DNA of 63,327 nucleotides, counting the filler, from Stramenopiles sp. TOSAG23-6 (Eukaryota): assembly GCA_900128565.1 (NCBI GenBank). It is 9 parts of 9 records of this genome, joined end to end, with 100 filler letters (N's around TTAATTAATTAA, not from the genome) between each part and the next. Parts side by side here need not be neighbours in the genome. Positions count along the whole stretch, not along the records: positions 26,195 to 34,814 come from LT636435.1; 8 more parts are not named here. The stretch is one strand, 5' to 3'. Numbering within the stretch: the first letter of the stretch is position 1; each line of letters opens with the position of its first letter. The position numbers and the translations under genes were made by a program. The notes beneath the pieces are model-generated. The model searched no databases, was not told where the DNA came from, and saw only the letters and a list, made by a program, of their open reading frames with translations. This document shows positions 1 to 61,036 of this stretch, one piece after another.

Positions 1-87
1 TTGTGAAAAAATAGTACAAGATTTTTGTTATTAGGTACAAAATTTCGTACGAAAAAAAATTAGGTAAAAAAAATAATGAAAACGTAC

Positions 88-783: not shown

Positions 784-992
784 TGTGTTACTATAACGGC
801 TGTATGAATTTCCCTATAATAATTAATTACACTACACTGACACATGCATGATGATGCTCTTCATGCGCATGAATCGGAATCGAAAATTGACCGACTACTG
901 GATTTCGTGTTTTCAACGTTGAAACCGTTAAATGTACGAAAGGCTTTCTTGTGGTGGTGTTTTACATACTCTAGCTAGAAAAGGTAGGTACT

Positions 993-994
<2 letters not shown>

Positions 995-1035
<41 letters not shown>
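995..1035. repeat. (AG)n microsatellite between divergent genes
   Basis: About 20 AG units seen directly. Confidence 0.95.
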
Positions 1036-1038
<3 letters not shown>

Positions 1039-1115
1039 TAGTTTATATATTTCTTAAAAGGAAAGGTACATTCTGCCATACATTATGAAGATATATTATT
1101 ACTTTTACTTATAAA

Positions 1116-3977
1116 ATGCGCCACATTCCCCTTCCAGTATGGGAGAATCCTCCACCAACAAAAAAGCAATTACTATTGGCCGAGACGTTTGAAATTGTAC
1201 GAAAGCATGGGTCTACGACAGGACTAGACTTATTGGATGAGGCATATGGAGGAGGTTTATCTCCAATTTCTAAAAGCAATCAAAAGAAAAGGACACAACG
1301 NAAAAAGTCAAAATCATCGAAATTTAAGATGCCTGAAAATACGGGTGATATGTTTGCGCATACAGTTATAGGAGATACTGGAGAAACAGGGGGTAAAAAT
1401 CAAGTACTAGCTACGCCAAAGTTATTTTTGGAACAGCACAAAGGAGAAAGTCAACCAGCTAAACTCGATAACCTTATTTTTACTGGATTTACGGACCATG
1501 ACTTACGCAATAAAGCAGAGGCAGGTTTAGAGGATGTCAGTGCATTTTTAAATCTTCCTGGAGGTGGGATAGTACCTGCAGCAAAAGATGCCCTCCTCGC
1601 ATTGGCGGAACCACGTAAAAAAATGCTGTTAGATAAAATTAAATTCGAGAATAATAGAAATTGTGACTTTGTGAAACTACAACAAGACTTTTATCGTGTT
1701 AATCAAAACATCAAAAATATGGATAAAGACATTAAATTAATGGCAAAAGCACACAAATCTAGTGAAAAAAAGCGTGCAAGAAAGATTCGTCAAGAGGATC
1801 GATTTCTTGAAGTTAAATATGGTGTGACTTCTCCAACTCTTGACAAATATAGATTAAAGATGAAAAAACAAAGAAATAAAAAGGCAGAGGCAAAAACAAA
1901 ACGATTAAAAAAATTAGAAGCGATTGACAATGGAGAAAAAGAAGACAATAGTGCCAGTTTGGGAGGTACAAAAAAAGAGAAGCGAGAAAGAATGCAGCGT
2001 CAAAGAGAAGAACGAGAAAGAAAAGCAAGGTATCAAAGAAAACTTCGAAGGAAACAACGTCGTAATGAAAGTTACGCTACTAAATCATTTAGAAGTGCAG
2101 ATTCTTTATATAGCAAGCAAAAGAAACAAATCGCGACAGCAATAGCTTTGCGGAAAGAGAAAGATGACACGTTTAAGCGTAACGAAATACTCCGAAAGCA
2201 CGGTGGTGGTGGAGGGAGTAAACAGGATTTGTTGTCTTCACAAATGAGCAAAAACCAGTCAAGAATAGGAAGGACGATGGAACATTATTATATGTACCAC
2301 CGCAATTTGACGGATGCTGCAGTAACAATTCAGAGAAAATATAGAAAAGCTGCGCGAATAGCATATTGGAAAAGACATGCGTGGCAATCAAAGGCCGCGA
2401 AAACAATTCAGAGATTTGCAAGAGGAGGATTGACTAGAACTATGGTAGCTCGTTGGTGGGCGCGTCGCAATTACCTTGTCTGCAAGATGCAAGCTATAAT
2501 GCGAGGATACTTTGGTCGCGTGAAATATGATATTGTACGTAAAAGAGAGTATAACGCGGCAGTGACTATACAACGATGTACTAGAGGTTGGTTGGGAAGA
2601 TGTAATTGGGATTTAGCTCAAATGACAAAGGCATGTACCGATATACAACGCATATGGAGAGGCGGAAGTAGATTATGTGGCCGTGCTCTGGCGGATAAGT
2701 TGTGGTTAAATGGACATGTTTTAAAGATGCAACGCGTCGGTAGAAAATTTATACACGGTCGGGTAGGTGTGAAAAGAATTCATAAAGAAATGAATGATGC
2801 CGTGGTTGCAATTCAACGATGTTTTCGTGGTTGGATGGCAAATAATACAAGAAATCGTCTATTACGAAACAGATCAGTTTTACAGCGAGTACTCCAAGTA
2901 AATATTCTACGTTCTGAAGCTGTTTATGTCGACGATGTTGTTACTGAGCTAAAACGCGATCTCGAAAATGCGGAGCTTGGTGATCGATTAAAAAGTATAG
3001 AAAAAGAGGAGGCACATGGCCGCCGAGATTGTTATCAAATTGAATTTGATTATCAAGCGTTCATTCGTGAAAAACGGCGACTTTCGCCTAGAGCAATTGC
3101 ACAGGGATTTGTAAAAAATATTGACAAAAATATCGATACGTATAGAGAAAAAATTACAAAATCTAAACTAAAGATGCTTTTCGATATTGGTAGAGAATCC
3201 AGACGTTTACACGCACTCCAAAAGAAAGCTGATAAATTATTTCAAAAATATAAATTTGAACAAGAAATATATAGTAAATGGCGCGAGGAAGATATGGATG
3301 TGCATTGGCAAAACGTTGCAGTTTTTAAGAAACAAAATCGTGAGAAAAAGGCCCGAATGGCTATCTCAGAACAAAAACGCAAATGGTCAATTCGATTCTA
3401 CACAGAAAATGGAAAACCTGATAGAAAACGAAGATATGGAAGACCTTGGCATTCTTCAGTATATGCAGATCCCAACAAATTGCGATATACAATGACAGGG
3501 GAGTTCTGGACAGATTTTTCATCATATGAAAATCTGATTAAACTCCAAAATACACTTAATGCATACCAATATTACGGTGCATCAATGAAACCATTAATGG
3601 ATGAATGGAATGGATTTGAGAAAAGTTTGGCTGTAGCTGGTACAGAAGCTGACAAAGAAAGGATAGAAAAGGAGAGAAGATTACGAAGAAAAGAACTCAT
3701 AGAGGAATTAAGACAAAAAGAAATCGAAAAAGAAATGCGAGAAGATGAAAAAGAGAAAAAAGCTGCTGAAGAGAGACAGAAACGTCGCGAGGAAAGACAA
3801 CTCACAAGATCGCAAATTGCAGAGGAAGCAAAGAAATTATACAAACCTAGGAGCCAGGTATGGAATTTATTGGATGATTTGGACATGGGGAAAAATGACT
3901 TACAAACTGAAATGAGAATCGAACGTGAGGAAGAAATTAGAAAATCCTTTAAGAAAAAATCTAAAGAAGAAGAATAA
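1116..3977 (+). CDS. IQ-motif (calmodulin-binding) coiled-coil protein, intronless
   Basis: 953-aa ORF with repeated IQxxxRG motifs (TIQRFARG, KMQAIMRG, TIQRCTRG, DIQRIWRG, AIQRCFRG). Confidence 0.8.
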   Translation: MRHIPLPVWENPPPTKKQLLLAETFEIVRKHGSTTGLDLLDEAYGGGLSPISKSNQKKRTQXKKSKSSKFKMPENTGDMFAHTVIGDTGETGGKNQVLATPKLFLEQHKGESQPAKLDNLIFTGFTDHDLRNKAEAGLEDVSAFLNLPGGGIVPAAKDALLALAEPRKKMLLDKIKFENNRNCDFVKLQQDFYRVNQNIKNMDKDIKLMAKAHKSSEKKRARKIRQEDRFLEVKYGVTSPTLDKYRLKMKKQRNKKAEAKTKRLKKLEAIDNGEKEDNSASLGGTKKEKRERMQRQREERERKARYQRKLRRKQRRNESYATKSFRSADSLYSKQKKQIATAIALRKEKDDTFKRNEILRKHGGGGGSKQDLLSSQMSKNQSRIGRTMEHYYMYHRNLTDAAVTIQRKYRKAARIAYWKRHAWQSKAAKTIQRFARGGLTRTMVARWWARRNYLVCKMQAIMRGYFGRVKYDIVRKREYNAAVTIQRCTRGWLGRCNWDLAQMTKACTDIQRIWRGGSRLCGRALADKLWLNGHVLKMQRVGRKFIHGRVGVKRIHKEMNDAVVAIQRCFRGWMANNTRNRLLRNRSVLQRVLQVNILRSEAVYVDDVVTELKRDLENAELGDRLKSIEKEEAHGRRDCYQIEFDYQAFIREKRRLSPRAIAQGFVKNIDKNIDTYREKITKSKLKMLFDIGRESRRLHALQKKADKLFQKYKFEQEIYSKWREEDMDVHWQNVAVFKKQNREKKARMAISEQKRKWSIRFYTENGKPDRKRRYGRPWHSSVYADPNKLRYTMTGEFWTDFSSYENLIKLQNTLNAYQYYGASMKPLMDEWNGFEKSLAVAGTEADKERIEKERRLRRKELIEELRQKEIEKEMREDEKEKKAAEERQKRREERQLTRSQIAEEAKKLYKPRSQVWNLLDDLDMGKNDLQTEMRIEREEEIRKSFKKKSKEEE

Positions 3978-6342: not shown

Positions 6343-6810
6343 TTTATAATGATATGTAACGCTGAATAAATAAATGTAGCCAAAAGTACACAAATCAATA
6401 AAGATAATCAGGACCAATACGCAATCGTTTGTTTTTTTTAGAATAGTGCTATAATATAGTAATGTTTTCACTGTAAAATTCACAAATAATTCTTTGATGA
6501 TGTCGTCGACGGCGACTGAGTCGGACTGACACGTCATCGATGAATTTTGATGACGCGCAGAAGAGGAAGCATGTTTGTCACAGTTTTTTTCGTGCCAACA
6601 AGCGTTTTTTTGTAGTGAATTTTGTACGTAAGAAAAAAGCCCTAACCCTCGCTTATTATTTTTTCTGTACGATACAATTATTGACCGACCACGCGAACGA
6701 ATAGTGAATAGCGTACCGCGAGATCGATGATAACCTTGTGCGCAAATTCATTTCGTTTGGATCTCTAAAAAAGGCAAAGACTAGGCTATATAGAATATAG
6801 AGAAACTACA

Positions 6811-8904: not shown

Positions 8905-9682
8905 GTAAATGCGCTTTTAACTCATATGAGGCTTTAGACCTGAATAGTCAATGCTTATATGAACAAAATTCAGATCAAATCGCATCACTTTTTCCTGATT
9001 TAGCAGCAGATGTACATTTTAATTTTATGAATTTCAATTTTTTTTTTTGGTTTTCGTACGAAATTTCGTACCTAACAAAAAAACAATATTTTTTTTTTTT
9101 TTTTTTTTTTTTTAGAGTATGTATATATATTTCTATATATTATTTCATCCCATCTATTTCAATTTGAATTTTTTTTCATACAACAAATTATATATCTAAC
9201 AAATATCAATTATGAAATATGTTTCATAATTTATTTAAGCTCAAAAGAAGAATTAGACAAATGTATGTTTTTTTTTTTTTTTGTATGAATTTTTTTTCGT
9301 ACGAAATTTTGTACCTAACGATTTTTTTTAGTTTTTTTTTGAAATATTTTTCTACAATACATTTGCATTAGGTGCCGAAGGATCTACAATCAATGTACAT
9401 TTTTAATCATTACAAAATTTTAAATTTTCATACGAAATTTTGTACCTAACAAAAAAATTTAAAAAAAATATTTTCAAACAAGAAATGAAAATTTTAAATT
9501 TTCATACGAAATTTTGTACCTAACAAAAAAATTAAAAAAAATATTTTCAAACAAGAAATGAAAATACAACTCCTGAGACACGAAATGTGTATGACGTCAC
9601 TAGCTATATAGGAGCACGTGCCGATACTAATGGACTTTTAGCAGCAGATCAAGGGTTAGGGTTATTAGGACCATTTGGTTAA
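8905..9682 (+). CDS. 3' fragment of a hypothetical gene with several small exons
   Basis: Short open exons (KCAFNSYEAL..., SKEELDK, FALGAEGSTIN, ...QGLGLLGPFG*) separated by family introns; not all junctions resolved. Confidence 0.45.
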
Positions 9683-25890: not shown

Positions 25891-26399
25891 ATGTATTTTT
25901 GGAAAAATATTTCAAAAAAAATGTAAAAAAAAATTGTTAGGTACAAAATTTTTATAAAAAACCAAAAAAAAAAAACGATTTTTTTTTTTTTTGGTTTAAA
26001 AAAAAAAAAAAAAAAAAAAATTTTTTTTTTTTTTTAAAAAATAAAATTTTTTTTTAAAAATAAAAAAAAAAAAAAAAAAAATCGAAATGGGTAANNNNNN
26101 NNNNNNNNNNNNNNNNNNNNNNNNNNNNNNNNNNNNNNTTAATTAATTAANNNNNNNNNNNNNNNNNNNNNNNNNNNNNNNNNNNNNNNNNNNNGTTTCC
26201 AATTTCATTGTTAGACCTGTATGAAATATTGATTGGTTCGTAAGACGGACTCAAGTCAATGCGGAAATTTTCGATTTTGTGGCCTGACTCGACCGTTGAC
26301 ATTTTTAATTTTAACGTAACTGTTGCTACAGTTTGTTTGATAACTACTTAAGCTGCTTACTACTTGGGAGTATCCTGTGCTTCACGCGACCACATCGCC

Positions 26400-29300
26400 A
26401 TGTGGTATGATATGGGTATGTATATACTTGTTATTATTCTACATCTTACTCATATTTCTCAATCTGGACTTTCCCAGAACAGACGTGAGGAGTTAGACTT
26501 ACAAGGCCAATTAGTAGTTATGGGTGTAGAGAATGGACACACTTACGCGAAAGAAGCCGTATTTGCAGTTGCTGTAGGCCCAAAATTTGATAGGAAAACA
26601 TCGCGTCTATTATTAAGGCTTAATGGTGCTGTGATTTCTAGTGATAAAGAACATACCGTAAGTACACCAGGTTTGCACGAACTTGAAGTTGGTTTCCTTT
26701 ATTTTCAGACATTAGAACCATCAGCTCCACAGTCCTTGGCTCAGCGAATACACTTTGTTGTCGAGTCTTCAGAAAGATCTGGTATGGAGTGGGGACTGCC
26801 ACTATCATTACCTCCGACTTTATCTGATGTACCTATATCAAATATACCATGGGATGATGTATTGCTGCATGTTATTTCGCCTTCTCTGATGCCTCAGGTT
26901 ACTGTACGAACATCTACGAAAGGTAGACCACGAGCATTTGGAAATTTGCCCTTCACAGTCCAAATGATATCTCGACAAAGTGGATTTGCCATTCGACACA
27001 CCGTTGAAGCTTATGCTTCTTTACGATGTTTAAATTGTGACAAGTCGTCAACTTCTAGTACCCTTTTGGCAAAGCTACCCTTTCTGATGATTCGAGGTCA
27101 TGGCGTTGGAGTGGTTAGTTTTTCAGACGATAGTTTAGATGAAAAAGAGCAATTAAGTGAATATATCATTCGCCAGTATGTTCTTACAGTTCATGTAGGA
27201 TATTCATCGTCAAATCCACACTATATAGATTTTTCTGTCAGTCCTCAAGAGTATCAAATAGTACCCTCAATTATATCAAAAGATTTAATCTATGAGGCAG
27301 GATCTGCATTATATATGCCGCGAGGTTCTATTGTGCTTCAAAGTGGGTCTTTAACTATAAAAGGCCCATCTGTGGTTATGATGGGTGCTGGTGCGAAATT
27401 GGTATGTTCGGGTAAGATTTCAATCGATGGATCTGTAAATAATAAATCTGTCGTCTTTATTACAACAACGACAAAAACGTCTTTTTGGTCAGGAATTCGG
27501 GCTCAAGGGGCTGCAGCAGAGCTTACAATTAAAGGTGCAATGATACTACGTGGCGGTGGCATGATTGATGATCCTCCTCCACGTGCTATACTACATTTGA
27601 CCCCTGGTTCAACAACGTATATTCAGAACAGTGTCTTTGCTGCTGCCAGCAAAGGATCTCTGCTAGTAGCTGCTTCAGATTCTTCATTAAAAATAGATGG
27701 CATGGTGTCACACGGTTTTCTATCCGCATTGCGTCTCCATAAATGTAATATTGAAATAAATAGTGGTGTATTCATAGGTTTTGTTTTAAATACTGCCAAC
27801 GATGATGTAGCACAGGCTAAGGAAGAATTGCAAAATAAAGCAGCTGAAGATGCAGAAAACAATGCTACGAGAACAAGCAACCCAATACCTATTAACTTGC
27901 CAAAGAAAGCTCCTTTACCTGAGTTTGTTACCTTGCCTTTTACAGAGAGAAACTTGCTTTCTTTACAGGATGGGTTTTCTGGTGGAGATTGGGATAATCA
28001 TTTAGGATGGAAGAGTACTGGTGCCAGTATTGAACAACTACAGTGGCATGCATGGATGAAAGGAAATCAAGGTCGTTTACGATCCAATTTGCAAGATGGG
28101 GTGACAGAAGCATTTAATAACGAAAGGCTGTTTCGAAAACGTCAAGGGATAAAACGAATAAATGCACATGATACAATGATTTCAAAGAAGGGTCCTCGAG
28201 TAATTGCAGGTGTTGGAGAAAGTAGAAAGAAAACGAAAATGAATAAAAGGAAAGCACGTTTTTCTGAATATTTACAAGAGCATCTTGAGGAAAATATTAT
28301 ACATATTAATAGTGGGAATACTAAAATATCCAATACTCTAATATTTGGTTCAGTTGGAGATTGTCTTGACTTGGAAGGGAAAGGTGGTACAGTTACTATT
28401 ACTCAATCGTGGTTTGAAGGTTGCTCACATGAAGGAATCGCTGTATCTGTACGGGAACCTGAAGAATACAGTATGTACATTCCTGAAGTAAGACGGAATT
28501 CACAAAAACAAGAAAATCTTCCTAACAATTTAAAAAAAAAAATATTGAAAAAAGTTGTCGTGGATAACACTGTACTCGCCGGATGTCAACAAGGAGTGGA
28601 AGTTGGTTCATCTCGTTCTGATGAAGTTTTAGTCGATATGGAACACATATTATTACTGCAAAATGGTATTGGTTTGCGCCTAGGTGATAATTATCAATCT
28701 AACCAAGGCTATATGATGGCAACAGGATTGCTACGATGTCGCCGGTGTGCTTTCATTAGAAACAATAAAGACGTTTGGCATGCTCAGAAAATAGAAGGCT
28801 CTAAATTTTTATCAGGTACAGAAATTTCACCAGCTGCAAAGATTTGGGTTCACGATTCTTTGGTCGAAAGTATGGATGCGGCAATACTCGATCCTTCGAA
28901 TGTATTTCCGAGATATAGACCAAAGGATTCACTTGCCGTGAAGATCGCAATGATGCACAAAACAGAAAGAATTCTTCGCGCTGAGCAAGGTAACACTGGA
29001 GAAGGTGATATAGCGTCAGATGAAATAAATGAAGAAAAAGAGAATTTCATGAGGATACTTGATGAATCTGTTCTTTCGAACTTGACTGGCTCATCTGTTG
29101 CTGGAATTGTACCTATAGTTGACACACAAACAAATATATCATTATCATTGACAGGCACTCTTGCATCCGCTGTGACGGCTGCAGCTGCCGCGCAATTAAA
29201 TGCTTTTTTTGCATTGCTACCAACAAGTAGTTGTGGTCATGGTATATATGGGTTATCTGCTTCAACTTCACCATTTTCAAAAGAAGAGATTGATTCATTT

Positions 29301-32300
29301 CTGAAATTTCCTTACGGCTTACATAAGATATATAAAAGATTAGGTTATGTTGATCCGGAGCTTACCTCAAAAGTTTTAGAGTCTGTTAGAGTTCCTGAGA
29401 TTAATTTGAATTCTGCCTCAATTATTATGCCCAAAAAAACAGCTACTTTGAACTTTCGTTCAGATGAACCTGCTAGATTTTCATTGCTTCGTTTTTGCCA
29501 AGAGCAAAATTGTTCTTCCGAGGAGTATAAACAGATTCTAGGAGCGCTTGATAATCTAGAAAAAAAAACAAAACATGAATCCAAGCAAAATCAGCCTGGA
29601 TTAACTTGTAAAGTTGGCGACGACGTAATTGCCGAGTTTGAAGGGGATGGTAAAATGTATAAAGCAAAAATTGAGCATATTACAATAGATGAAAACATCT
29701 TAGAAAATTCTATCATAACTATTCAATGGGATGATGGCGACCCATCACATAGAAATTTGCCTTTTACCAAAGTATTCAAGGATGGTGGTGTATGTAATTT
29801 CCCAAAGGACAAACAGAATGGGGTTGGAGAAGACAAAACAGCTAACGCTGAAGACATTTGGAAGCATAGCGCGCGAGACGTAGATTTTTGGATGAATCAA
29901 TTCAACAAGATTGTGGAAAAAAATCCTCGTTGGAAACGTCTCAATATGGATCATAACAATGTTTCTGTTTGTGCGAATGGTGGTCGGACAAGTTATCTAA
30001 GACTGAAACCCTCTAATGCTATTATCGGGAGTTTAATTAATGGATTTCAAAGAGATCAAAACATGAACAATTTTTCATATTTTGATATTGCCTGGGGTAG
30101 TCATAAATATGATGACAAAAGCGAAGAAAAATGGGAAAACATATTTATTGATAAATGGAAAGCGATTCACGAAAACAAGGATAGTGAAGAAGATAAAACG
30201 TGTGATGAAAGCGGTGAATGCCAATCAGAAAATGTAGATACAAAAGCATCTGAACATGTAGGAAATATATTAGATGGAAGAGAACATTTGTTTGTTGTCG
30301 TTCTTTGGGCCAATGTAAAACCTCGAGTGCGTGGCGATACTTTACATTTTTTGTGTGAAGAAAGACTCAGTCAAATGCGTGTAGTAAATATTTATCAGTT
30401 TTCTCCAAATGCGCCTTTATTTAGTCGTAAGGATACACACGAAGAGCGGTGGTTTGATAAGGAATGGTACAATGAATTCTGGGCTATCGGAAAAGACAGC
30501 AAACGTATTTATGATATATCAGCCAAATTAGGTACCGGGCCATTTCAAGTTATATTGTTGCGTGGAACTACTGTTGCTTTTGAGCGAGCAAAAACAACAA
30601 TAAATATGTGGATTCAAGACGACAAGGAGAAAGATGCAAATATTGAAATACTTGGTAGAGTGGATGATATTCAAGTCGCATATTTCGCTCCAAAAACTAG
30701 CGGTCTTGTTGATGATTCTTGGTACCGTCCACCGCCAGGCAAGCCAACAGATGATTTACAAATACTATTGGGTATATCACCACAAGCTACCCAAATGTTT
30801 TTTGGTAACAGTAAGTATTTTCTGAATAGGCATACTAAATCTAAAGACAATTTAAAGAAGGGGAAACCAGTATTTGGAGATTGGTTAGCTTCCCAATGGT
30901 TTGGAGATTATTCCTCAGCGAGCCAAAATAAAGTCAATTACGGCGATAGAAGCCAATCATTTGATCCAAGCAAAGTTGAAGATTTTAACGAGATGGTAAA
31001 TGGAGTTCACACACTACATTCAGATCTTTCACGTGGAGTTTCTCATGATTTTTTTCGAAATGACGGTAAAAATCGATTAAGTGGAACGTTGCGAAGTACT
31101 CTGCTTCAAAGGAGGAAAGAAAAATATTCAACTCCATCGAAGTCCAGCCAAAGTAACTTAATTGAAGAAATGAATTCCACTCTGTCCCATGCGAAAATAC
31201 TAGCGCTTGCAAATCGACCCATGTCTCCTGAAAGTCAATTTCATTTTGGAAAAACAGCTGAATGTCCAAAGTCTACAGACGTTTACTGGAACTTTCAAAT
31301 GGGGCTCGGGGCATTACCTTCAAATACATTCGAAGTACTCGCATCAGTTGTTGGTGCCTTTGCTTTAAACAAGACTTTCGAGACATCTGATAATCAAGAT
31401 ATATGTAACAAAGATGGAGATGATACTCATACAAACTTTACTGATGGTCTAGGTGTACTATTGAATTCATGTGAAGCAATCAAAAAAATAATTGAATTTC
31501 CCAGTCTAAATAATGCCCGTGAAAATATATATAGAGCTGCACTTGTAGCACGTCATCGACCTCGTTTATTAGAAATTTTACTACGTCCAGACTTGTCAAT
31601 TGATTCATCATCTTTGCAATGGATTAAATTTGTAGTACCTGCGTATCGGATAGGAAGTCTCCAAATTTCAAATTCTGATGCCTCTACGGGACTGTGGGCA
31701 GATGAGCTTGCTAATACTTCAATAGCAAATGTTGCAGATATAATTCGTCGAATACGAACTTTTGTTCGTCGCAGAAAATGGAATAAATGGTTCCAGGGAT
31801 ATAAAGTGAATCTTCAGTCATATGGCATGGGTATTACTATTGATGAGATCAAATATGAATTGATTGCTCAAGGTTTGTTGATCACTGATAATGTAAATGG
31901 GGAAGAGGGAAGTGATGATGATTCAAAATGTGCATTGAGCTTTGCAATTAATCTTTGGCATGATATGTGTAAACATTGGAAAACTTTAAAATCGCATGGA
32001 TTCAGTCCTATATCGGACCTTCCAACTCTTCGATCATCAACCAATCCTCTAATTAAAGCTGCCGTATCTTTCTTTTCTAATATTTCAGCCACCAATGTTG
32101 GTATTGGGGTGTCAAACGATTGGTATTCTGATATTGAAATGATGGATGGTGGAGCACACGCACTTGCATTATATCTATTTTCGATTGACCATTTTCCTGC
32201 AGTTCGCGACTCAATTCGATCACAAATATCAAATCATATACGCGAAGCCAAAGAGGCTCACTTAAAATATTCGTCTAAGCGGAAATTAAGCATGAAAAAA

Positions 32301-33404
32301 TTCATCCATGAAAGTAAGAAAAGAGAAACTGAAGAAAACCAAAATAAACACAATATCCCAATTATTCACCCGACTACATTTTTGGCTAATAATATGGAAG
32401 CTGGTTGGGGTGGCATTCATACTACTGAAGAAGACGTGTTATTATTACGAATGAAATTAACGAGGTTTTATGCACAATGGGCCCCAGGAAAACTTACCAA
32501 ACAATCTAGTTCAAATTATCACGATATGAAAGACAAAAATATGTATGACCCAGAAAATAATATTTGGAATAAAAATTTACCGATGGAAGCGTTGTCATGG
32601 AAGTGGTTGGGTCGAGAACGAACACTTTGGTTTGCACTTTTGTATAAGTATCAGGAAGCAGCTTGGCAGATTTCTCGTGGGAATATTAAAGCACCGGATG
32701 CGATCGCTGCATCTGCAGCAGTTGAAGTAGTCGAAAAGCTTGAGATGGAAGCAATGGCATATAATGCATCAGGATTATTGGATGAACCACTTGATATATT
32801 TTTTGATGAAAATGATTCTGTAAATGATCAAAGCATTCCCCAAACAAAACACAATGAAACAAAAAAAGAAGAACTTCGAATTGATACAAATGATAACAAA
32901 CCATATACAATGAACAGTTTTTTTGAGCATTATGGTAGTCTAGACGAGTGGAATGCGGCACGCAGTTTAACAGCAGAAGAAGAGAAACATATAGATGAAA
33001 TCAGTAAAATAAAAACAAGCTTGTTAGAGAAAGATATAAACACAAAAATGAATACCTCAAAGGGGGAATCAAATGATAGAAAACCAAAACAAAAAAAATT
33101 TGCTAAAAAGAGAAAACGAAAAGGAAAACCATTGAAACTGAAAACAAAGTTGAAACTGTCCTCTAAAATGAAAGGAATGCAAAATAAAATCAAAAATTTT
33201 AACCATCAGCACACAAATAAAACTTTGCAAGAAATGCTTGCACAACAATCCCATGGCCAGAGACAAATTGGTCCAATGGCTCCTCAATTCCGAAGCGCTG
33301 TTGAAGTTAACACTGAGAGAAGTTCAAATGAAATCCGAAGGTTCAAGTGGGATCTCCCACCTTTTCTTCATTTTCGTTTATTTGTCGGATATTCTTCAAA
33401 GTAA
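26400..33404 (+). CDS. Very large intronless protein: probable signal peptide, right-handed beta-helix-like region, Tudor-like domain
   Basis: ~2330-aa ORF with a hydrophobic N-terminus, GDCLDLEG/EGIAVS/QGVEVG/GIGLRLGD beta-helix-like turns, and KVGDDVIAEFEGDGKMYKAKI...IQWDDGD. Confidence 0.7.
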   Translation: MWYDMGMYILVIILHLTHISQSGLSQNRREELDLQGQLVVMGVENGHTYAKEAVFAVAVGPKFDRKTSRLLLRLNGAVISSDKEHTVSTPGLHELEVGFLYFQTLEPSAPQSLAQRIHFVVESSERSGMEWGLPLSLPPTLSDVPISNIPWDDVLLHVISPSLMPQVTVRTSTKGRPRAFGNLPFTVQMISRQSGFAIRHTVEAYASLRCLNCDKSSTSSTLLAKLPFLMIRGHGVGVVSFSDDSLDEKEQLSEYIIRQYVLTVHVGYSSSNPHYIDFSVSPQEYQIVPSIISKDLIYEAGSALYMPRGSIVLQSGSLTIKGPSVVMMGAGAKLVCSGKISIDGSVNNKSVVFITTTTKTSFWSGIRAQGAAAELTIKGAMILRGGGMIDDPPPRAILHLTPGSTTYIQNSVFAAASKGSLLVAASDSSLKIDGMVSHGFLSALRLHKCNIEINSGVFIGFVLNTANDDVAQAKEELQNKAAEDAENNATRTSNPIPINLPKKAPLPEFVTLPFTERNLLSLQDGFSGGDWDNHLGWKSTGASIEQLQWHAWMKGNQGRLRSNLQDGVTEAFNNERLFRKRQGIKRINAHDTMISKKGPRVIAGVGESRKKTKMNKRKARFSEYLQEHLEENIIHINSGNTKISNTLIFGSVGDCLDLEGKGGTVTITQSWFEGCSHEGIAVSVREPEEYSMYIPEVRRNSQKQENLPNNLKKKILKKVVVDNTVLAGCQQGVEVGSSRSDEVLVDMEHILLLQNGIGLRLGDNYQSNQGYMMATGLLRCRRCAFIRNNKDVWHAQKIEGSKFLSGTEISPAAKIWVHDSLVESMDAAILDPSNVFPRYRPKDSLAVKIAMMHKTERILRAEQGNTGEGDIASDEINEEKENFMRILDESVLSNLTGSSVAGIVPIVDTQTNISLSLTGTLASAVTAAAAAQLNAFFALLPTSSCGHGIYGLSASTSPFSKEEIDSFLKFPYGLHKIYKRLGYVDPELTSKVLESVRVPEINLNSASIIMPKKTATLNFRSDEPARFSLLRFCQEQNCSSEEYKQILGALDNLEKKTKHESKQNQPGLTCKVGDDVIAEFEGDGKMYKAKIEHITIDENILENSIITIQWDDGDPSHRNLPFTKVFKDGGVCNFPKDKQNGVGEDKTANAEDIWKHSARDVDFWMNQFNKIVEKNPRWKRLNMDHNNVSVCANGGRTSYLRLKPSNAIIGSLINGFQRDQNMNNFSYFDIAWGSHKYDDKSEEKWENIFIDKWKAIHENKDSEEDKTCDESGECQSENVDTKASEHVGNILDGREHLFVVVLWANVKPRVRGDTLHFLCEERLSQMRVVNIYQFSPNAPLFSRKDTHEERWFDKEWYNEFWAIGKDSKRIYDISAKLGTGPFQVILLRGTTVAFERAKTTINMWIQDDKEKDANIEILGRVDDIQVAYFAPKTSGLVDDSWYRPPPGKPTDDLQILLGISPQATQMFFGNSKYFLNRHTKSKDNLKKGKPVFGDWLASQWFGDYSSASQNKVNYGDRSQSFDPSKVEDFNEMVNGVHTLHSDLSRGVSHDFFRNDGKNRLSGTLRSTLLQRRKEKYSTPSKSSQSNLIEEMNSTLSHAKILALANRPMSPESQFHFGKTAECPKSTDVYWNFQMGLGALPSNTFEVLASVVGAFALNKTFETSDNQDICNKDGDDTHTNFTDGLGVLLNSCEAIKKIIEFPSLNNARENIYRAALVARHRPRLLEILLRPDLSIDSSSLQWIKFVVPAYRIGSLQISNSDASTGLWADELANTSIANVADIIRRIRTFVRRRKWNKWFQGYKVNLQSYGMGITIDEIKYELIAQGLLITDNVNGEEGSDDDSKCALSFAINLWHDMCKHWKTLKSHGFSPISDLPTLRSSTNPLIKAAVSFFSNISATNVGIGVSNDWYSDIEMMDGGAHALALYLFSIDHFPAVRDSIRSQISNHIREAKEAHLKYSSKRKLSMKKFIHESKKRETEENQNKHNIPIIHPTTFLANNMEAGWGGIHTTEEDVLLLRMKLTRFYAQWAPGKLTKQSSSNYHDMKDKNMYDPENNIWNKNLPMEALSWKWLGRERTLWFALLYKYQEAAWQISRGNIKAPDAIAASAAVEVVEKLEMEAMAYNASGLLDEPLDIFFDENDSVNDQSIPQTKHNETKKEELRIDTNDNKPYTMNSFFEHYGSLDEWNAARSLTAEEEKHIDEISKIKTSLLEKDINTKMNTSKGESNDRKPKQKKFAKKRKRKGKPLKLKTKLKLSSKMKGMQNKIKNFNHQHTNKTLQEMLAQQSHGQRQIGPMAPQFRSAVEVNTERSSNEIRRFKWDLPPFLHFRLFVGYSSK

Positions 33405-33427: not shown

Positions 33428-34763
33428 TTAATGATTTTTATTATTCACTGGGAGTCTTAAACTCAAATTTGATTGTGCGGTATGAAAATCCGAGTCGAGC
33501 ATTAGTTTTCGAAATTCTTCAGGTCCGATTTGTCCATCACCAGATATATCAGCTTCTGCAATAACACGTGCCACATTTGGATCATCTGGTCCATATGTAT
33601 TTTGGAAAAGTATTTCAAAAAAAAAACTAAAATTTGTTAGGTACTATATTTCGTACGAAAAAAAATTCGATTTTTTTGTTAAAAAAAAAAATAAAACATA
33701 CATTGATCCCCCAATAATGTAGCCAAATTATCTTTTGTAATGAAACCATTGCTATCTATATCCATGCGTTTAAACGTGCAATCGATGATTTCCTCTGTCA
33801 TTTCTCGTTGTTCAATACATGTATTTTGGAAAAATATTTCAAAAAAAATCGTTACGTACAAAATTTCGTACGAAAAATAAATTTGAAATTGAAAAAAAGA
33901 AACATACATGCAGCTAGGAATTCAGAGAACTGTACCACATTAGTATTATCTTGATCAATAGCGCAAAATATTTGTGAAATATTCAATTGTTTATCTTTAG
34001 GGTTAAGGTTATTATTTGGGCAAGTGTCTTCCATAACTTTCTGAAGTTCTGATTCACTAATAGTTCCAGTGTTATTTGTATCTATTCGTCGAAATTCCTT
34101 GGATAAATCTTCAAGTTGTGCTCTATCATAGAAATGTGCCATCACTCGAAGGGCGACTCGTTTCAATTTTCTGTAGGACTGAAATTTCGAAAGTGTTTCT
34201 ACAATTTTGATTTCACACTTATTTTCATTTGGCTCTTCGATATGCTTTTTGGAAAAATATTTGAAAAAAAAAAACTTAAATTTGTTAGGTACAAAATTCC
34301 GTACGAAAAAAAAATCGATTTTTTTGTTAAAAAAAAAATAAAACATACATCTTCTGGGAGTACAACGTTGTTCCTAAGCCATTGATGTTTCATTGCCTGT
34401 GCTGATGTAAGTCTTTCATCGGGATTTCGTTCTAGGAGCGATTGCACAAAACTTTTTGCATTCTTTGATATATTTTTCCATTTTTTAGATGTAAATAATT
34501 TACTATTATCCTCCAAAATTGCTTTTTCAAGTCGTATATTATAGGCTTCTGTTTTTTCCTCTGATGTTCTCTTCTCATGTTTAAATTTATACCATTTTTT
34601 CTTGGCAAGACCACTGAATGGTGGAGTGCCAGATAAAAGGAGATAAATATTATCAAAAAATATTTGAAAACTTTTGAAATTAGTTAGGTGTATTACTACA
34701 TTTCAATTAAATATGAAAAAAAAATAAAAATGGATAACGTACAAGTAACGACACCAAGTGACC
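33428..34763 (-). CDS. CDPK: Calcium-dependent protein kinase, C-terminal part (kinase subdomains IX-XI + 4 EF hands); introns 34645-34742, 34242-34348, 33819-33907, 33595-33701
   Basis: Spliced WSLGVVT-YLLLSGTPPF, ERLTSAQAMKHQWL, KLKRVALRVMA junction domain, and DTNNTG, DQDNTN, DIDSNG, DISGDG EF hands. Confidence 0.92.
34645..34742 (-). mobile_element. Family intron, GT...TT
   Basis: Only this 98-nt excision gives the conserved kinase motif GVVTYLLLSGTPPF; the exon ends TT and the intron ends TT. Confidence 0.85.
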
Positions 34764-35049
34764 ACGTATTTTGGAAAAATATTTGAAAAAAAAATCGTTA
34801 GGTACAAAATTTCGNNNNNNNNNNNNNNNNNNNNNNNNNNNNNNNNNNNNNNNNNNNNTTAATTAATTAANNNNNNNNNNNNNNNNNNNNNNNNNNNNNN
34901 NNNNNNNNNNNNNNTTTTTATTTATTTTGGAAAAATTTTTAAAAATTTTTTTTTTTGGTTAGTAAAAAAAAAAAAAAAAATTGTTAGGTACAAAATTTCG
35001 TACGAAAAAAAAAAAGTAGATAAATTTTTTTTAAAAAAATAAAAGATAC

Positions 35050-35712
35050 ATGAGCATCATCAATGTTTGTATTTTGTGAATTTAATTGTGCAGTAAAGGC
35101 AGAATGGCTACGAGGGGAATTATTTATTTGAATTGCATCATCTTTCAATGTTTCAGTCACATCATTCATTGTCTCAGATGGTTGAATTGTTTTTTTTTTT
35201 TTGGATTGTTTTTTTTTTTTCTCATTTTTACGTTTTTTTTCTGCTTTTTTTGGTGACTCTGGCGATAGACGAAAAAGAGAATTCGATGCAGTGATGTATT
35301 TATAACGAAAGTAAAATGGACCTTCGCGTAATGTTCCAGTAATTCGTGTCTGAAATACAAAGGCTCGACCTTGAATACAAAGCAGACTGTTGTCATCGCA
35401 TTCATCAGATATATAAATTTCATTGACTTTTCTATCTTTTGGATCACGACAAGCCACGTCGTTATTACGATAACACCATTGTAGACGCACACTCATTTCA
35501 CTTTTCCGATGATTCTCATTCGTATCTTGCCAGAATGAGAGACAACGAGCAACATAAGGAGCTACTTTCTTAGAAGGGGGTTGAAGTAGAACATAATCTC
35601 CCACACGCGTCAATCCGGAGTATTCATCAACAAAAGCAGCGTAATATGCACGCTTTGAACGATTCGATTTGTTTTGTATCCTTACAGGATCACCAAACCA
35701 ACGTATTGACAT
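35050..35712 (-). CDS. BAH-domain chromatin protein, exon 1 (3' truncated)
   Basis: RVGDYVLL...PYVARC..FWQ...VRLQWCYR...NEIYISDECD.N.L.CIQG. Confidence 0.85.
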
Positions 35713-36058
35713 GCTAAATAACTATACGTTGGTATACATGTTCTCATACAATACGATACTAAGAGTAACGAATTTACTTGTCTATATAATTGTGCTTCTT
35801 GTTGTTGAACAAGAAAAAAAATGATCGTGTGAGTTTGATTTGATGACTTGATTTGACTTCTTCTTGATGTTCCTCTTTTTTTCCTCGCGCGATTTTTCTT
35901 TCGAAAAAAAATGAAGAATTGAATTAGGTACAAAAAATAGGTACGGAATCATGCGGAAGGTTTCCTTATTTTGGTACGAAATTTTGTACCTAAATTTGAA
36001 TTCTGAATAACTTGAAATAAATTGTGCATTATATTGTATTGTATTGTATTGTATTATA

Positions 36059-50050: not shown

Positions 50051-52113
50051 TTAGTTACCAAGTAACCCCGTTTCTGTTATGAAATATTTCATTGAATTTG
50101 TCGGAGGTATTAAAAAATCTCCGTGTGAGTAGTGGTACACCATATCACACTTATGGGTTAATCGTTCGCATTCAAATGAACATTCATTATTAGGGTTAGG
50201 GTTATTAGAATCATCATTAGGGTTAGGGTTATGAGAATCATGTTTGATTTTCATTGCATTTCGTTTTCGCTTCTTACGGCGCATATTTGGTATATAGTTA
50301 CCAAAATAGGGAGAAAAATGTTTTAATTTTTCATGTTGTACAGTAGGAGGTACAACTGTTTGTAATAAATTTGAAATTGGAGAAAATATCAATTTTTTCT
50401 GAAATCCTACATTTTTTTTGGACAAAATTTCGTGTTTTGTATTTTTTGTATTTTTTACATTTTTTGTATTTTCATCAAAAAAAAAAAGATTTTTTTTCTT
50501 CCAATTTTGTACAATATTGTGCACAATGAGTACATATATTTTGCATCTCATCTGATATAATTTTTGATATTTTTGGATTTTCATGATTATTTGATACATT
50601 TTGTAATTTAGTGATGAAAATATCAGCTCCAAATCCAAGAAAATTTAATTTTTTTTTTTCGTGTTTTTCGTGTTTTTCGTGTTTTTCTTCTCTGTTTCGT
50701 GTTTTTATAATTGTATTCAATGTATTGTTAGTATACCATGTATTTAATCGTCTATACTCTACAAACATATCTTTACTCTTGTTTGTATTCCTTACTTTTT
50801 GTTTTCCATTTTTATTTTCAAAATTTTGTTTCATTGCAAAAATATCGAAACATTGACACGTGTCACTTTGTGTATCACAAATAAAATTAGTATTGTCCTG
50901 ATTATTGTCTAAAATTTTTTTTTTTTTTTTTTTTGAACATTTAATTTTTTTTTTCTCGTTTTTTTCATTCATTTTTTCATCTTTTCGTTTTCGACGTAAT
51001 CGATTGTTTTCTAATCTTTGAAGTTGTTTTATATGTTTTTCGTGTTGATCAGATACTTTTTTAGCTTCAACGCAATTTGGACAAAACCAAAAATTGTGTA
51101 AAAATATTTTAATTTTTTTTTTTTTTTTTGGTTAGGTACAAATATTTCATATATATTTTTTTTTTGGAAGGGGGTTAGGGTTAGGGTTAGGGTTAGGTAC
51201 AGTATTCAGTATGTTAATGTAAACGTACAATGTATTCGCATTTTTGGTGTTATTTTAGTAATACATTGAGGTAAGCAAAAAGAGTGATATACATGAATTG
51301 TGAAAAAATATTTTAAAAAAATTCGTTAGGTACAAAATTTCGTACGAAAAATAAATTCGATTTTTTTTTTTTTTTTTTCGGTAAAATAAAAAAAAAATAA
51401 AACATACATGATTACAATTAGTACAAGTCAATAGTTTTGAAGTGTGATTTTCAGTCGTAGATCCACAACCCTATATTGCAAAAAATATTAAATTGTTTTT
51501 TTGTTAGGTACAAAATTTCGTATGAAAAAAAAAAAAAAAATTGAATAAAAAAAAATTTCAAAAGCAAATGTAAAAAATATTTTTAAAAAAATATTTGTTT
51601 TGTTTTCTATGAAAATTTCGTATGAAAACCAAAAAAAAAAAATTGTAGAAAAAATTGAATAATGAAAATGTACATAACAACAGCCTGAATGGATTTTTTT
51701 TTGTTTTTCATTTTTTTCATTTTTTTGAGAATGTGCCATGTTTCTCTCTATATAATCATTATCATTTGTAATACACTCTTGATTTTGTAAAGATTTTAGT
51801 GATGTTTTTTTCAATGTATTTTGAAAAATATTTAAAAAAAAAAACTAAATTTGTTAGGTACAAAATTTCGTACGAAAAATTAAAAAAAAAAAAAAAAACA
51901 CATACATGAATCTTTTTCTTGTTTTTGTTGTTTTTGTTGTTTTTCATATTGTTGATATTCTTGTTGTTGTTGATATTGTTGTTGTAATAGCCTATCTCTC
52001 CACGAATTCCATTGTTTTAAACAATCATGTGCCGCAGATACCAACATTTTTTCAAATGCTGTATTAATACCAGATTTTTCAAATGGAGGAAATACAAACG
52101 ATTTCGTGTTTTT
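50051..52113 (-). CDS. PHD-finger protein (5' truncated); introns 51814-51905, 51471-51673, 51293-51407, 51089-51228; probable homopolymer frameshift near 50480
   Basis: Spliced CY|GC...LLTCTNCNH|VYHSFC...H|WFCPNC gives a complete C4HC3 PHD. Confidence 0.8.
51089..51228 (-). mobile_element. Family intron, GT...TT, with internal (CCCTAA)n and a duplicated branch motif
   Basis: T|GG restores the PHD WFCPNC motif. Confidence 0.85.
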
Positions 52114-52390
52114 ATGTATTTTGGAAAAATATTTCAAAATTTTTTTTTTTGGTTAGTAAAAAAAAAAAAAAAATTGTTAGGTACAAAATTTCGTACGAAA
52201 AAAAAAAAGAAGATAAATTTTTTTTAAAAAAATAAAANNNNNNNNNNNNNNNNNNNNNNNNNNNNNNNNNNNNNNNNNNNNTTAATTAATTAANNNNNNN
52301 NNNNNNNNNNNNNNNNNNNNNNNNNNNNNNNNNNNNNAATTTCGTACGAAAAAAAAATCGATTTTTTTGTTAAAAAAAAATAAAACATAC

Positions 52391-57924: not shown

Positions 57925-58225
57925 AATAAGTATTGATCGAGATCAGAGGTAACACTGTGTTTGTTTCGCTTGAAAGTTTAAACATTGGATTCGAAAAAAA
58001 GCAAATTTTAGCACAATTAGGGTTAGGGTTAGGGGATAATTGGGGAAACATACAATTATTAATGTGCTATAAATTTACAAAACTTCAAAAATATTTAAAA
58101 ATAATAATATCATCAGATAATATATAGGGGGAATATATTTATACAAAAAACTAAATAGCCACTACATCTGAATCATTGGAATTTCACCAGTTAGTCTGCT
58201 GGACGAAAAAAGTCCTACTAATTGA

Positions 58226-60919
58226 CTAATTATACAATTTTTGATGATGATTTCTTACAATTTCTACATATGCTTTGGACCCATTTCGAAGTAATCTCTC
58301 CTGCGTGGCTCTATTTAATTCATATAAACCAAATTTCATACTCCAACCTTCCGCCCATTCAAAGTTATCCATTAAACTCCAATAATAATAACCACGAACA
58401 TCAACACCATCCGCAGATTGATTCTTTTTTCCTGGAAGAAATTGTGATTTCACCTCTTTAACTTGCGAATTAAATGGAAAATTTGAATTTGATATCATAT
58501 TGACCGACGGGGTATCATTATATATTTTTTGTTTTCGATGCATAAGAAATGCTTTGCGTCTTTGTTGGATTGAGCCTGGTGAAATATCATACGCAAAAGT
58601 GTTTCTACGTAACCCAGTACGCCCGGATTTATTCCAAATATCAACACCAAGTTCTTTCGCACCAGCAACAAAGCCTTCGTCAATTCCACCTTTACGTTTG
58701 CTCTCGTTCATTTTACTACGTAATTTCATAATCCGTTTTCTAGCCTTGTTTCGTTGAAGAAGGGCTTTTTGGACATTTCCCCATATTTCCCTTCTTTTAC
58801 AATCCTCTATCTTCAATGCATCATCTGTTTGCGATTCATATAAAGATGTTAAAATACCCGGATCAAAGTTTTTTAGCTGAAGGTATATTGATGCATTATA
58901 TACATTTCCTGCATTTGATCGCAGAGCATGCACAACAACCTCACGATTTGCTTTCTTTCCTTCAACTGCCATTAATGTTTCCATTTTATACCTCCAAAGA
59001 GGATCATCCAATTCTTCGACATCTCGTGTTTTCTTTTGAAGTTTTATTATTTTGTTTTTACCTATTTTAATCTTCGATCTCCGTGATCTTTGCAACTTCA
59101 CTAAATTGACCAAATCAGACTTTGAACTGTTAATAAAACGCAAAAAATCTAAAAAATTGACTTGGCCAGTATTTTCGATATCAAACAATTCACTTAAATT
59201 ATCGATTTCCATTGGCGTAAGTTCTATGTGTTTACAAACTGTATTTACAAAGTCTGTCCACTCAAGTGGGTCGTCATGATGATAATCTATCCACATTAAT
59301 ATTTCTTTGTTACTTTCAGAGATACTTTTGTTTGAATGCTCTGAATCTCCAATGCTATCCTNATCCTTCTTTTCATTTCTTTCAACGTCATCATCTACAT
59401 CGGATGGGTTTGATCTGTATATATAACTTGTTTCAAGTTTTCTACGCAATTTTTCCATTTTACTGAAAGGTAAAAGAGGTTTTAGAGCCTTTTTCTCGGG
59501 TTCTGCATTTGATTCCAGCATAGATTCTTTGAATGGCTCAAAAGTATTATTATTGTTAATTTTTTTCTTTCGTGCATACTCTTTACTATATTTATTTTTG
59601 GAAAGCCACTTCATACCCCGACCTCTGCGCAAGAAGTTCGTTTGCCTTTTAATCTCTTGAGGAAAATATAAGGTTTGATTCGCTTCTGGTAGTATCTGCT
59701 GAGTAGGAAATCTTTTTTTATGAGAATCATAGGCACGTTGGTGTCGCTTTAGTCTGCGCTCAAGCTCTGCTTTATTTTCTACACGGCGTGGGCGAGCTTT
59801 ATTTATCAATTTGTCCCGCTTCTGTTTATTCCTCAAGATCCCACTTTTCGACATCGAAGGTGTTGTTCCTAGTTGTTTCAGTAGACTCATTGAATCTTTT
59901 GGATTATACTTCAACTGATATTGTCGAACGTGTTCTATGAAAACAGTGAAATCTACAACCCCATCATCAAATTCTTTTAGTCTAGCCTTCCGTTTAGTTT
60001 CTTTGTACATCTTCATTTCTGCTTTAATATTAGCTTCTGCGCGACGCAGAGCCATCATTAAAGCAAATTTTCCCCCACCACCTGTAGGACCAACATTTTC
60101 CTCCATTCCATTTATCTCAGATTTACTATTCGTTTTAGCCATGTTTATATTTTGCGTGTTTTCTACAACATTTACTGAATCATCTGGATCCATCTGTTTG
60201 TAAAATAAATTCCCTCTTCCCATATCTGACATTTGAGGTTGCCACAAAATTTTGGAAATATTTTCGATTGATGTCTTCGACAATCCCCAATGAAGTAACC
60301 GTAAGCATGTTTTGAATCGTTTTAGGGAAATAAAAGATTTCCCGTGCCCTTCAGTCTTGAATAGATGCCACATTAGATGTAACTGTTGGCTGAATATTGC
60401 GGATGGCCGTGTCGCAGAAATTAACTCATCCCAAATACTCTCCCTCTGACACAGAGTTTGTTTTCTACGTTTTTCTCTATATTCCTCCATTGGGGATGCA
60501 ATTTTTATGCACGTGTTTTCAGGAAAACGACCCTCAACCAGCCCCGCATCACCATGCGCGTGAAATCCCCCAGCTAAACGACCATGATACCATCCATCTG
60601 CTGCAGCTGATACAACTATTTTGTCATTTACTTTGAAACTGAGCTCATTTGACGCTGCCGCTCTGAAATCACAAATAGCCTTGACATACAGATTATCAGG
60701 AAGAAGTGACAATACAGATCGTCCACGAAAATTTCCTGTCAAATCATAGATTGACTCAAGACTATTTTCATTTTCACCAGGGTATTTTAGAGGATATTTC
60801 GAAGGAGGAAGGGGCAGTGGTAATGGTGGAAAAGGTTGCTTAGTAGCAGCTACTTGCTCAGCAGCCACCTTTTTGCGTGACTTAGCTAGACGATATTCGA
60901 GAGAGTCATTTAATGGCAT
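58226..60919 (-). CDS. SH3 + EF-hand-like + UBA-like protein ending in a glycoside hydrolase family 1 C-terminal fragment
   Basis: KAICDF.A...ELSF..ND.I...DGWY.G...GRFPEN; DIENTGQVNFLDF; ALRSNAGNV..A; GVDVRGYYYWSLMDNFEWAEG. Confidence 0.7.
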   Translation of the reverse strand: MPLNDSLEYRLAKSRKKVAAEQVAATKQPFPPLPLPLPPSKYPLKYPGENENSLESIYDLTGNFRGRSVLSLLPDNLYVKAICDFRAAASNELSFKVNDKIVVSAAADGWYHGRLAGGFHAHGDAGLVEGRFPENTCIKIASPMEEYREKRRKQTLCQRESIWDELISATRPSAIFSQQLHLMWHLFKTEGHGKSFISLKRFKTCLRLLHWGLSKTSIENISKILWQPQMSDMGRGNLFYKQMDPDDSVNVVENTQNINMAKTNSKSEINGMEENVGPTGGGGKFALMMALRRAEANIKAEMKMYKETKRKARLKEFDDGVVDFTVFIEHVRQYQLKYNPKDSMSLLKQLGTTPSMSKSGILRNKQKRDKLINKARPRRVENKAELERRLKRHQRAYDSHKKRFPTQQILPEANQTLYFPQEIKRQTNFLRRGRGMKWLSKNKYSKEYARKKKINNNNTFEPFKESMLESNAEPEKKALKPLLPFSKMEKLRRKLETSYIYRSNPSDVDDDVERNEKKDXDSIGDSEHSNKSISESNKEILMWIDYHHDDPLEWTDFVNTVCKHIELTPMEIDNLSELFDIENTGQVNFLDFLRFINSSKSDLVNLVKLQRSRRSKIKIGKNKIIKLQKKTRDVEELDDPLWRYKMETLMAVEGKKANREVVVHALRSNAGNVYNASIYLQLKNFDPGILTSLYESQTDDALKIEDCKRREIWGNVQKALLQRNKARKRIMKLRSKMNESKRKGGIDEGFVAGAKELGVDIWNKSGRTGLRRNTFAYDISPGSIQQRRKAFLMHRKQKIYNDTPSVNMISNSNFPFNSQVKEVKSQFLPGKKNQSADGVDVRGYYYWSLMDNFEWAEGWSMKFGLYELNRATQERLLRNGSKAYVEIVRNHHQKLYN

Positions 60920-61036
60920 ATTTGACCTAANNNNNNNNNNNNNNNNNNNNNNNNNNNNNNNNNNNNNNNNNNNNTTAATTAATTAANNNNNNNNNNNNNN
61001 NNNNNNNNNNNNNNNNNNNNNNNNNNNNNNTTTAAT

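Follow-up and report, generated by a model that had tools for sequence, protein, structure and literature searches.

Introns of one repeat family carry an internal core that is probably composite, combining a decaying relic of a mobile element with a branch site for standard U2, inside introner-like introns of presumed transposon origin. The family was studied in the window, that is, the whole 63,327-nucleotide stretch of Stramenopiles sp. TOSAG23-6 DNA analysed here, which consists of about nine gene-dense, AT-rich eukaryotic contigs with N-linkers between them. Observed directly were the conservation profile of the core, its position, the precise excision of two copies, seen in RNA contigs, and the restoration of reading frames when copies are taken out.

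The source appears to be a MAST-3-type stramenopile, as read from matches to the RPB3 gene at 31-813 (minus strand). The top match was P0001 (source label GSMAST32), followed by P0002 (72%) and P0003 (69%), and matches in other eukaryotes reached at most 54%. P0001 reads on into a family intron where P0002 and P0003 carry conserved residues, which has the practical consequence that a public gene model runs into one of these introns. Upstream of RPB3, 970-1071 (minus) is a possible canonical intron with a GTACCT donor, a CT microsatellite, GTACCTACC and a TAG end. Long frames free of family introns were seen at 26352-33404 (plus), 1089-3977 (plus) and 58226-60982 (minus); neighbouring genes have one per few hundred bases.

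The curated set comprises 45 complete introns whose ends were placed by hand. Of these, 41 were first located via TAC[CG]TAA, so the invariance of the box described below is partly built in; donor-only and 3'-end-only searches added the other four, with boxes AAACCTAAC, ACACCTAAC, GTACTTAAT and ATTTTTAAC. Left out were ten core copies that were truncated at a contig end or whose ends were unclear, the candidates at 9199 and 43124, and upstream tandem core duplicates. For the intron at 38492 the end was set to AG, and for the donor at 56854 the 3' end was not placed in frame. The copies are mutually related, and all counts across the 45 introns are therefore non-independent. As in introners, look-alike introns occur in unrelated genes (45 complete copies, 30 of them aligned) and are precisely absent from mRNA, as seen for two copies in RNA contigs and suggested by the 43 of 45 introns that pass the open-frame cut-off. 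Joined frames after intron removal were 710, 1211, 808, 769, 717, 375 and 322 codons long. The core pattern had no match in viral contigs or in prokaryote genomes, and no look-alikes in the other genomes scanned.

The copy singled out by the initial annotation lies in a calcium-dependent protein kinase gene, as an 89-nt GT...AT intron at 33819..33907 (minus strand, GTATGT...ATACAT). If it is excised along with the gene's other three introns, one frame of 322 codons results. Furthermore, without the insert 33907-33819 the EF-hand junction aligns gap-free to solved CDPKs: relative to 3k21, the exon before the insert stops at residue 113 and the exon after it matches residue 115 with its second residue, the corresponding residues being 119/121 in 4jwq and 116/117 in 3o4y. 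This intron lies outside the RNA-mapped stretch 17466-26094, and its splice register can slide. Read on the minus strand, it begins with a U2-like donor, GTATGT (33902..33907), and continues through the 12-bp palindrome TTTCGTACGAAA (33864..33875), taken here as a decaying element relic, into a second 12-mer region, TTTTGTACGTAAC (33863-33851), which is the TACGTAAC variant; the coordinates and the variant form originally reported for this copy are thus correct. The candidate branch box GTACGTAAC (33851..33859; family form GTACCTAAY) was assigned from the family profile and the U2 pairing rank, and its presumed branch A is 33852, 33 nt before the 3' end. The conserved 3' end, TTTCCAAAATAC followed by AT (33819..33832), was recognised from the end profile, and its final two bases are the same as those that end the upstream exon. 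No AG occurs from the box to the 3' end.

Conservation of the core is concentrated in its right part. GTACCTAAY was observed 51 times against 0.47 expected, and within the 45 introns GTACCTAAY is intact in 37 and ACCTAAY in 41. When the second A of CTAAC is numbered 0, T-2, A-1 and A0 are each present in 45/45 introns. A pyrimidine follows at +1 in 44/45, and upstream C-3 is found in 42, C-4 and A-5 in 44 each, T-6 in 43 and G-7 in 40. The three departures at -3 are G, T and T, the G being that of the kinase intron at 33819..33907. YTAAY is present at the box in 43/45. Distance from the box to the 3' end is 33-51 nt in 44 introns and 89 nt in one, in agreement with the 30-50 nt first estimated, and the donor-to-box distance is wide (51-175 nt). 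Position, the invariant U-2 and A0 and the pyrimidine at +1 also bear out the earlier description of the motif as branch-like. We infer from this profile that the ACCTAAC box acts as a splicing branch signal.

It could be argued that the box is uniform merely as part of a young family, with no selection at all, and indeed in 10 of the 45 copies no more than one site outside the box departs from the consensus, and the copies were ascertained through it. We regard this as highly improbable. Change at C-4 affects 1/45 introns, against 75 of 180 cells at the four neighbouring G/C sites of the palindrome, and the searches that started from the intron ends still recovered ACCTAAC or YTAAY. Even among the 22 most diverged copies, ACCTAAY is retained in 19 and C-4 in 21. 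C-4 is also kept better than the C at -10 of the 3' end (34/45; Fisher p 0.004) and the C at -3 (30/45), and both C-4 and A-5 are retained at least as well as the donor +5 G (40/45). The box was intact in four of the seven AG-ending introns and in 33 of the 38 others (p 0.09), and a relaxed box in AG-ending introns is thus not established.

The left part of the core behaves differently from what was first described, namely a perfect palindrome in nearly every copy and a near-invariant core. Only 15/45 complete introns have the perfect palindrome (20 of 50 readable copies in the core-first list) and 6/45 the whole 25-mer, so that the claim of conservation stands for the right part of the core and is overstated for the palindrome. 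It is nevertheless no chance sequence, with 22 sites observed against none in 30 Markov simulations. Its centre occurs as 21 different hexamers, 16 of them singletons, and the most frequent single change turns G into A at CpG (five among the 45). Other short palindromes, with AAATTT and AATATT centres, recur in the element. We read the palindrome as inherited mobile-element sequence, a decaying relic.

The two halves could instead have been kept as an RNA hairpin, GUACGA-AAUU-UUGUAC, that presents CUAAC to the spliceosome. Such a hairpin with CUAAC at its foot is predicted in four of six intron folds, and its covariation score exceeds 499 of 500 shuffles. The double changes behind that score amount to three cells, and 12 of 30 aligned copies have a broken closing G-C pair but retain its C. 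Moreover, GTAC is kept in 13 of 18 copies that lack the 5' arm, intron fold z-scores are just -0.8 to -2.2, and RNAalifold gives no consensus pair for the hairpin. On the broken closing pair and the missing consensus pair we rejected the hairpin as a selected feature, and give it scarcely any credence.

The last two bases of the exon equal the last two of the intron in 28 of 38 non-AG introns, nearly always as AT (GT/GT once, TT/TT twice, and a GT/AT mismatch four times). Apart from T and A runs, the alignment of 30 copies shows only a 4-bp GTAT/ATAC inversion at the element ends, and many introner families are reported to lack terminal inverted repeats (PMC9860276, PMC11282704). Traces of the core also occur between genes. 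Within hand-delimited intergenic DNA totalling about 5.2 kb, TTTTGTACCTAA with no more than one change was found four times against 0.1 expected, and a scan that ignored the last five bases gave three hits scoring at least 12 (0.35 expected) at two loci. These three hits continue as CTAAA, CAAAA and GTAAG, none of them CTAAY, compared with CTAAY in 41/45 introns. In small numbers and among related copies, this pattern, together with the profile and position of the box, is what selection on a branch site predicts. A further intergenic copy at 35924, missed by that scan, retains GTACCTAAT. It is one of two cores arranged head to head at 35922..35995, both lacking element ends, with GTACCTAAT on the minus and GTACCTAAA on the plus strand, and the surrounding 35900-36010 folds with a z of -5.4. 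A decayed copy lies between divergent genes at 6570..6680 (plus); its box has become GTACGTAAG, and CCCTAAC is found further down.

The same material could mean that the GTAC units are a DNA-level site, bound by a transposase or another protein during spread, and that any role in branching is incidental. In line with this, two related 12-mers stand in tandem; the core is duplicated in tandem within single introns (9449/9523, 41938/41976, 51132/51193, 56503/56533 and 31/60); the inverted pair at 35922-35995 has three to four GTAC units, one of them antisense to both flanking genes; and a 2-nt end repeat is seen in 28 of 38 non-AG introns. We nevertheless think it improbable, as decay falls on the palindrome, which most resembles a binding site, with its 15 perfect copies and 16 singleton hexamers, and it is the box that persists in diverged copies. 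In addition, no transposase was recognised, by eye, among 61 ORFs, and the 5.2 kb of intergenic DNA held no full-length copy.

One complex insert, at 9012-9233 (plus), contains two cores, of which the second has become ATATCTAAC by decay, and carries TAG-A-GTATGT internally; it is either one long intron or two introns around a 1-nt microexon. CCCTAA/TTAGGG repeats resembling telomeres are dispersed through both coding and non-coding DNA (CCCTAACCCT 18 times against 0 expected), at 51172-51200 (minus), 9653, 12263, 39075, 42195, 58017, 62455 and other sites. One such run extends directly from a core (GTACCTAACCCTAACCCTAA), and the CCTAAC of the box is a permutation of the repeat. Another part of the window, approximately 57985-58054 (minus), upstream of a thioredoxin-domain gene, is a possible 70-nt 5' UTR intron with a GTATGT donor and no family core; an AT follows its CCCTAAC repeats at a distance of about 33 nt.

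The intron ends are unusual on one side only. GT starts 44/45 introns, G is found at +5 in 40/45, and the donors are mainly GTATGT (25/45) or GTACGT (9/45), as in U2-type introns. RTATCC was found in 0/45, and the description of the donors as U2-like and not U12-like is thereby confirmed. At the other end, AT is found in 34 introns, AG in seven, TT in three and GT in one, so that most copies lack the AG acceptor of a U2-type intron. Three of the end-first or atypical introns illustrate the range. A diverged copy without palindrome in the same kinase gene (34645..34742, minus) was found independently of the core, has box ACACCTAAC and a TT end, and its removal restores WSLGVVTYLLLSGTPP. Another copy without palindrome (19166..19315, minus) has box AAACCTAAC and an AG end and lies within the 710-codon frame. 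An intron at 43388..43526 (minus) has no family box, with TTTTTAAC 40 nt before its AG end; it lies in long homopolymer runs at a contig end, where the letters may be unreliable. The gene holding it we take, from its peptide, to be FKBP-like.

Evidence from RNA was obtained for part of the window. Six metatranscriptome runs on seawater, belonging to two studies, contained 6-13% of the words of 17470-26090, and contigs from four of the six runs were aligned to 17466-26094. A 168-nt GT...AT family intron at 20376..20543 (minus), with its box 35 nt from the end, is removed in one contig of depth 13 (X4 record 26), which links 20375 to 20544 at adjacent record positions 146/147. The register here allows GT..AT or TG..CA only, and AT..AC is impossible. 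A 117-nt GT...AG family intron at 19825..19941 (minus), with its box 49 nt from the end, is removed in another single contig (X1 record 2, linking 19824 to 19942 at positions 243/244), with no sliding of the junction. Thus one AT end has been seen in RNA, and both introns carry GTACCTAAC. Each of the two contigs has three to four differing letters, indicating this organism or a close strain. Of the eight core-found family introns in this stretch plus the one at 19315, these two are shown removed, and no bridging piece was listed for the rest. Most listed joints of RNA contigs were repeat-to-repeat artefacts, and the 15 of 37 joints that were listed contained no lariat junction. In X1-X3, summed contig depth over the intron repeats of 17466-26094 was in the thousands, compared with 2-13 for exon contigs, and other copies appeared with their flanks unspliced; this may reflect retained introns, stable excised introns, DNA, or summing over many copies.

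Non-AG ends raise the question of the minor spliceosome, and the initial annotation had offered a repurposed U12-like snRNA as a reader of the box. In Physarum non-AG ends are reported to be enriched among U12 introns (10.1101/2020.10.12.336362), and the stramenopile Blastocystis is described as having U12 introns and minor snRNAs (PMC10639083). In our set an AT-AC register would suit many copies, and one family intron (42397-42607, plus), which keeps a 140-codon frame, apparently starts with AT (ATACGT) and ends with AT. The chance that a U12-like snRNA reads the box is still very slim: the donors, as noted, carry +5 G and never RTATCC, the U12 branch motif TCCTTRAC is found in 0/45 introns, pairing to the U12-type motif is computed at +2.4 kcal/mol, and AT-AC is impossible for the intron 20543-20376 seen in RNA.

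The box was also thought to call for some other non-standard snRNA, as TACCTAAC departs from TACTAAC. This is not supported. CCTAAC fits the human branch consensus yUnAy (PMC2367711), which pairs with the GUAGUA of U2; for the present introns this is a fit of sequence. As reference we used loci in viral contigs with a standard U2 5' pattern, three in number, one of which passes Rfam U2 (RF00004). These loci (L002-L004) are IMG/VR records of 1.8 kb filed as viral, with a U2-like 5' end, and L003, the one that passes, has a truncated 3' part. The natural U2 of L003 ranks the box A first in 40/45 introns and second in four, leaving one unranked, and forms eight pairs with the box when one extra C is bulged. 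A variant snRNA is thus not required. A tolerant standard U2 would also fit the G at -3 of the kinase intron (TACGTAAC), the TTTTTAAC box and one TACTAAC. The last is found in a single intron, 52114..52237 (minus), where the family box, having drifted, lies 63 nt from the end, and a canonical TACTAAC occupies the usual distance, at 39 nt. An apparent second gain is probably the same intron: 52114..52237 and 34915-35049 have near-identical letters and give an open joined frame, suggesting one intron on two contig ends. The contigs with 34915-35721 and 50051-52237 (both minus) would then overlap in one intron of one gene, which from its peptides presumably has a BAH-like start and a zinc-finger-like later part. 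None of the 45 cores has itself shifted to TACTAAC.

Most likely, then, standard U2 (GUAGUA) reads CUAAY, and the AC upstream is under additional selection. The retention of C-4 and A-5 is not predicted by plain four-pair U2 pairing, and this counts against the explanation, as do the weak computed pairing of the box to standard U2, the lack of any core that has become TACTAAC and the intergenic copy at 35924 that keeps GTACCTAAT. In human introns any base is reported to be possible at -4 (PMC13167188), and full pairing of UACUAAC with GUAGUA is described as needed in yeast and not in many species (PMC13019295). Human SF1 favours UACUAAC (PMC3064769), and SF1/BBP could explain the hold on -4 and -5.

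A co-evolved U2 could also account for this retention. If nearly all introns belonged to one family, the branch sequence of U2 could have become GUAGGUA(C), which would pair along the entire GTACCTAAC box. The computed gain is 7-9 kcal/mol: pairing of the box to standard U2 amounts to -1.2 kcal/mol, that of TACTAAC to -3.9, and that of the box to hypothetical GUAGGUA variants to -8.3 and -10.3. The box is held with yeast-like strictness from -7 to +1, with the gradient seen from G-7 to C-4 (40, 43, 44 and 44 of 45), C-4 survives in all but one of the most diverged copies, and ACCTAAC is kept in two copies without palindrome and GT. Co-evolution of snRNAs has been reported for Physarum U12 (10.1101/2020.10.12.336362) and Entamoeba U1 (10.1101/2022.06.08.495308). 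We still consider a changed U2 unlikely. GUAGUA is described as almost never changing (PMC13326754, PMC13685798), being retained both in Fritillaria, where most introns are non-GT/AG (PMC13326754), and in ciliates, where branch sites vary (PMC13685798); the -3 changes (3/45) would sit within the core helix; and the one canonical TACTAAC lies inside the usual distance range. A rigid search for a U2 5' pattern with GUAGGUA in JGI metagenomes, a collection not known to include the organism, gave one match, which is not U2. This match, L001, has no Rfam match and has retroelement-like frames, and was taken as chance. In the window itself, Rfam gave nothing at the gathering score, only five weak sub-threshold matches of snoRNA type and no spliceosomal RNA. 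Were a GUAGGUA(C) helix with GTACCTAAC real, it would replace the AG check at the intron end and constitute a natural genome-wide compensatory change in the branch-recognition sequence of U2. The alternative would be an ordinary snRNA with changed protein partners, Fritillaria-like.

Under the favoured reading, that of an element relic joined to a standard-U2 branch site, the following mechanism can be proposed. A short non-autonomous element would have inserted mostly at AT, duplicating two bases. The left part of its core (palindrome, AAATTT and GTAC) would be internal sequence of the mobile element that decays after insertion, as would other parts without a role in splicing. U1 and U6 would read GTAYGT, and U2 of the major spliceosome would pair its GUAGUA with CUAAY, the second A being bulged; with one extra C looped out, the upstream UAC could pair too. 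The hold on A-5 and C-4 may come from this bulged register or from a branch-binding protein. The 3' cut would be set by the terminal motif, and neither by AG nor by a fixed distance from the box, so that the branch box and the terminal TTTYCAMAATAYAT motif may together carry 3'-end definition where AG is absent. The box may be kept nearly yeast-strict because most copies have no AG. The branch A, its reading by standard U2, the cause of the hold on A-5 and C-4 and the transposon origin are what we infer.

GT-AT introns are unusual, and one has now been seen removed in RNA with an AT-AC reading excluded. The core suggests what the spliceosome may use as a cue without AG, a branch box far upstream held with a strictness like that of yeast. 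A single intron in thousands of natural versions could also serve as a ready mutational scan of the choice of branch and 3' end. We found no publication on such introns in MAST-3; the supplementary family tables of PMC9860276, outside this search, might list them.

Among known systems, the closest are the introner elements of the Micromonas, Aureococcus and Chrysochromulina type (PMC9860276, PMC11282704). As described for these, look-alike introns stand in unrelated genes and are removed exactly, the element brings the donor, and the 3' site comes from the end repeat. The present family differs in that AT and not AG would be the duplicated bases, in its 2-nt repeat and 4-bp inverted end, and in its strict internal branch box. 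Fritillaria likewise has transposon-like introns that escape GT/AG, handled by the major spliceosome with a strictly conserved U2 branch sequence (PMC13326754), but the usual ends reported there are AG-AC and AG-AT (PMC11282704), whereas here the GT is normal and the acceptor alone deviates. The U12 introns of Physarum share a mass gain proposed to involve transposons, non-canonical ends including GT-AT, and an altered branch motif. They differ in having RTATCYTT donors and, 10-12 nt before the end, a TTTGA branch that matches a changed U12, in contrast to the GTAYGT donors and the box 33-51 nt from the end found here (10.1101/2020.10.12.336362). With yeast UACUAAC and human yUnAy the box shares its CUAAY core and invariant U-2 and A, with yeast-like strictness; it differs in the upstream GUAC-C, one base longer than the U2 complement, in the lack of AG, and in its distance of 33-51 nt, compared with 21-34 nt for most human sites (PMC13019295, PMC2367711). 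The family introns thus work like U2-type introns and like introners, and are neither canonical U2 introns, lacking AG, nor U12 introns.
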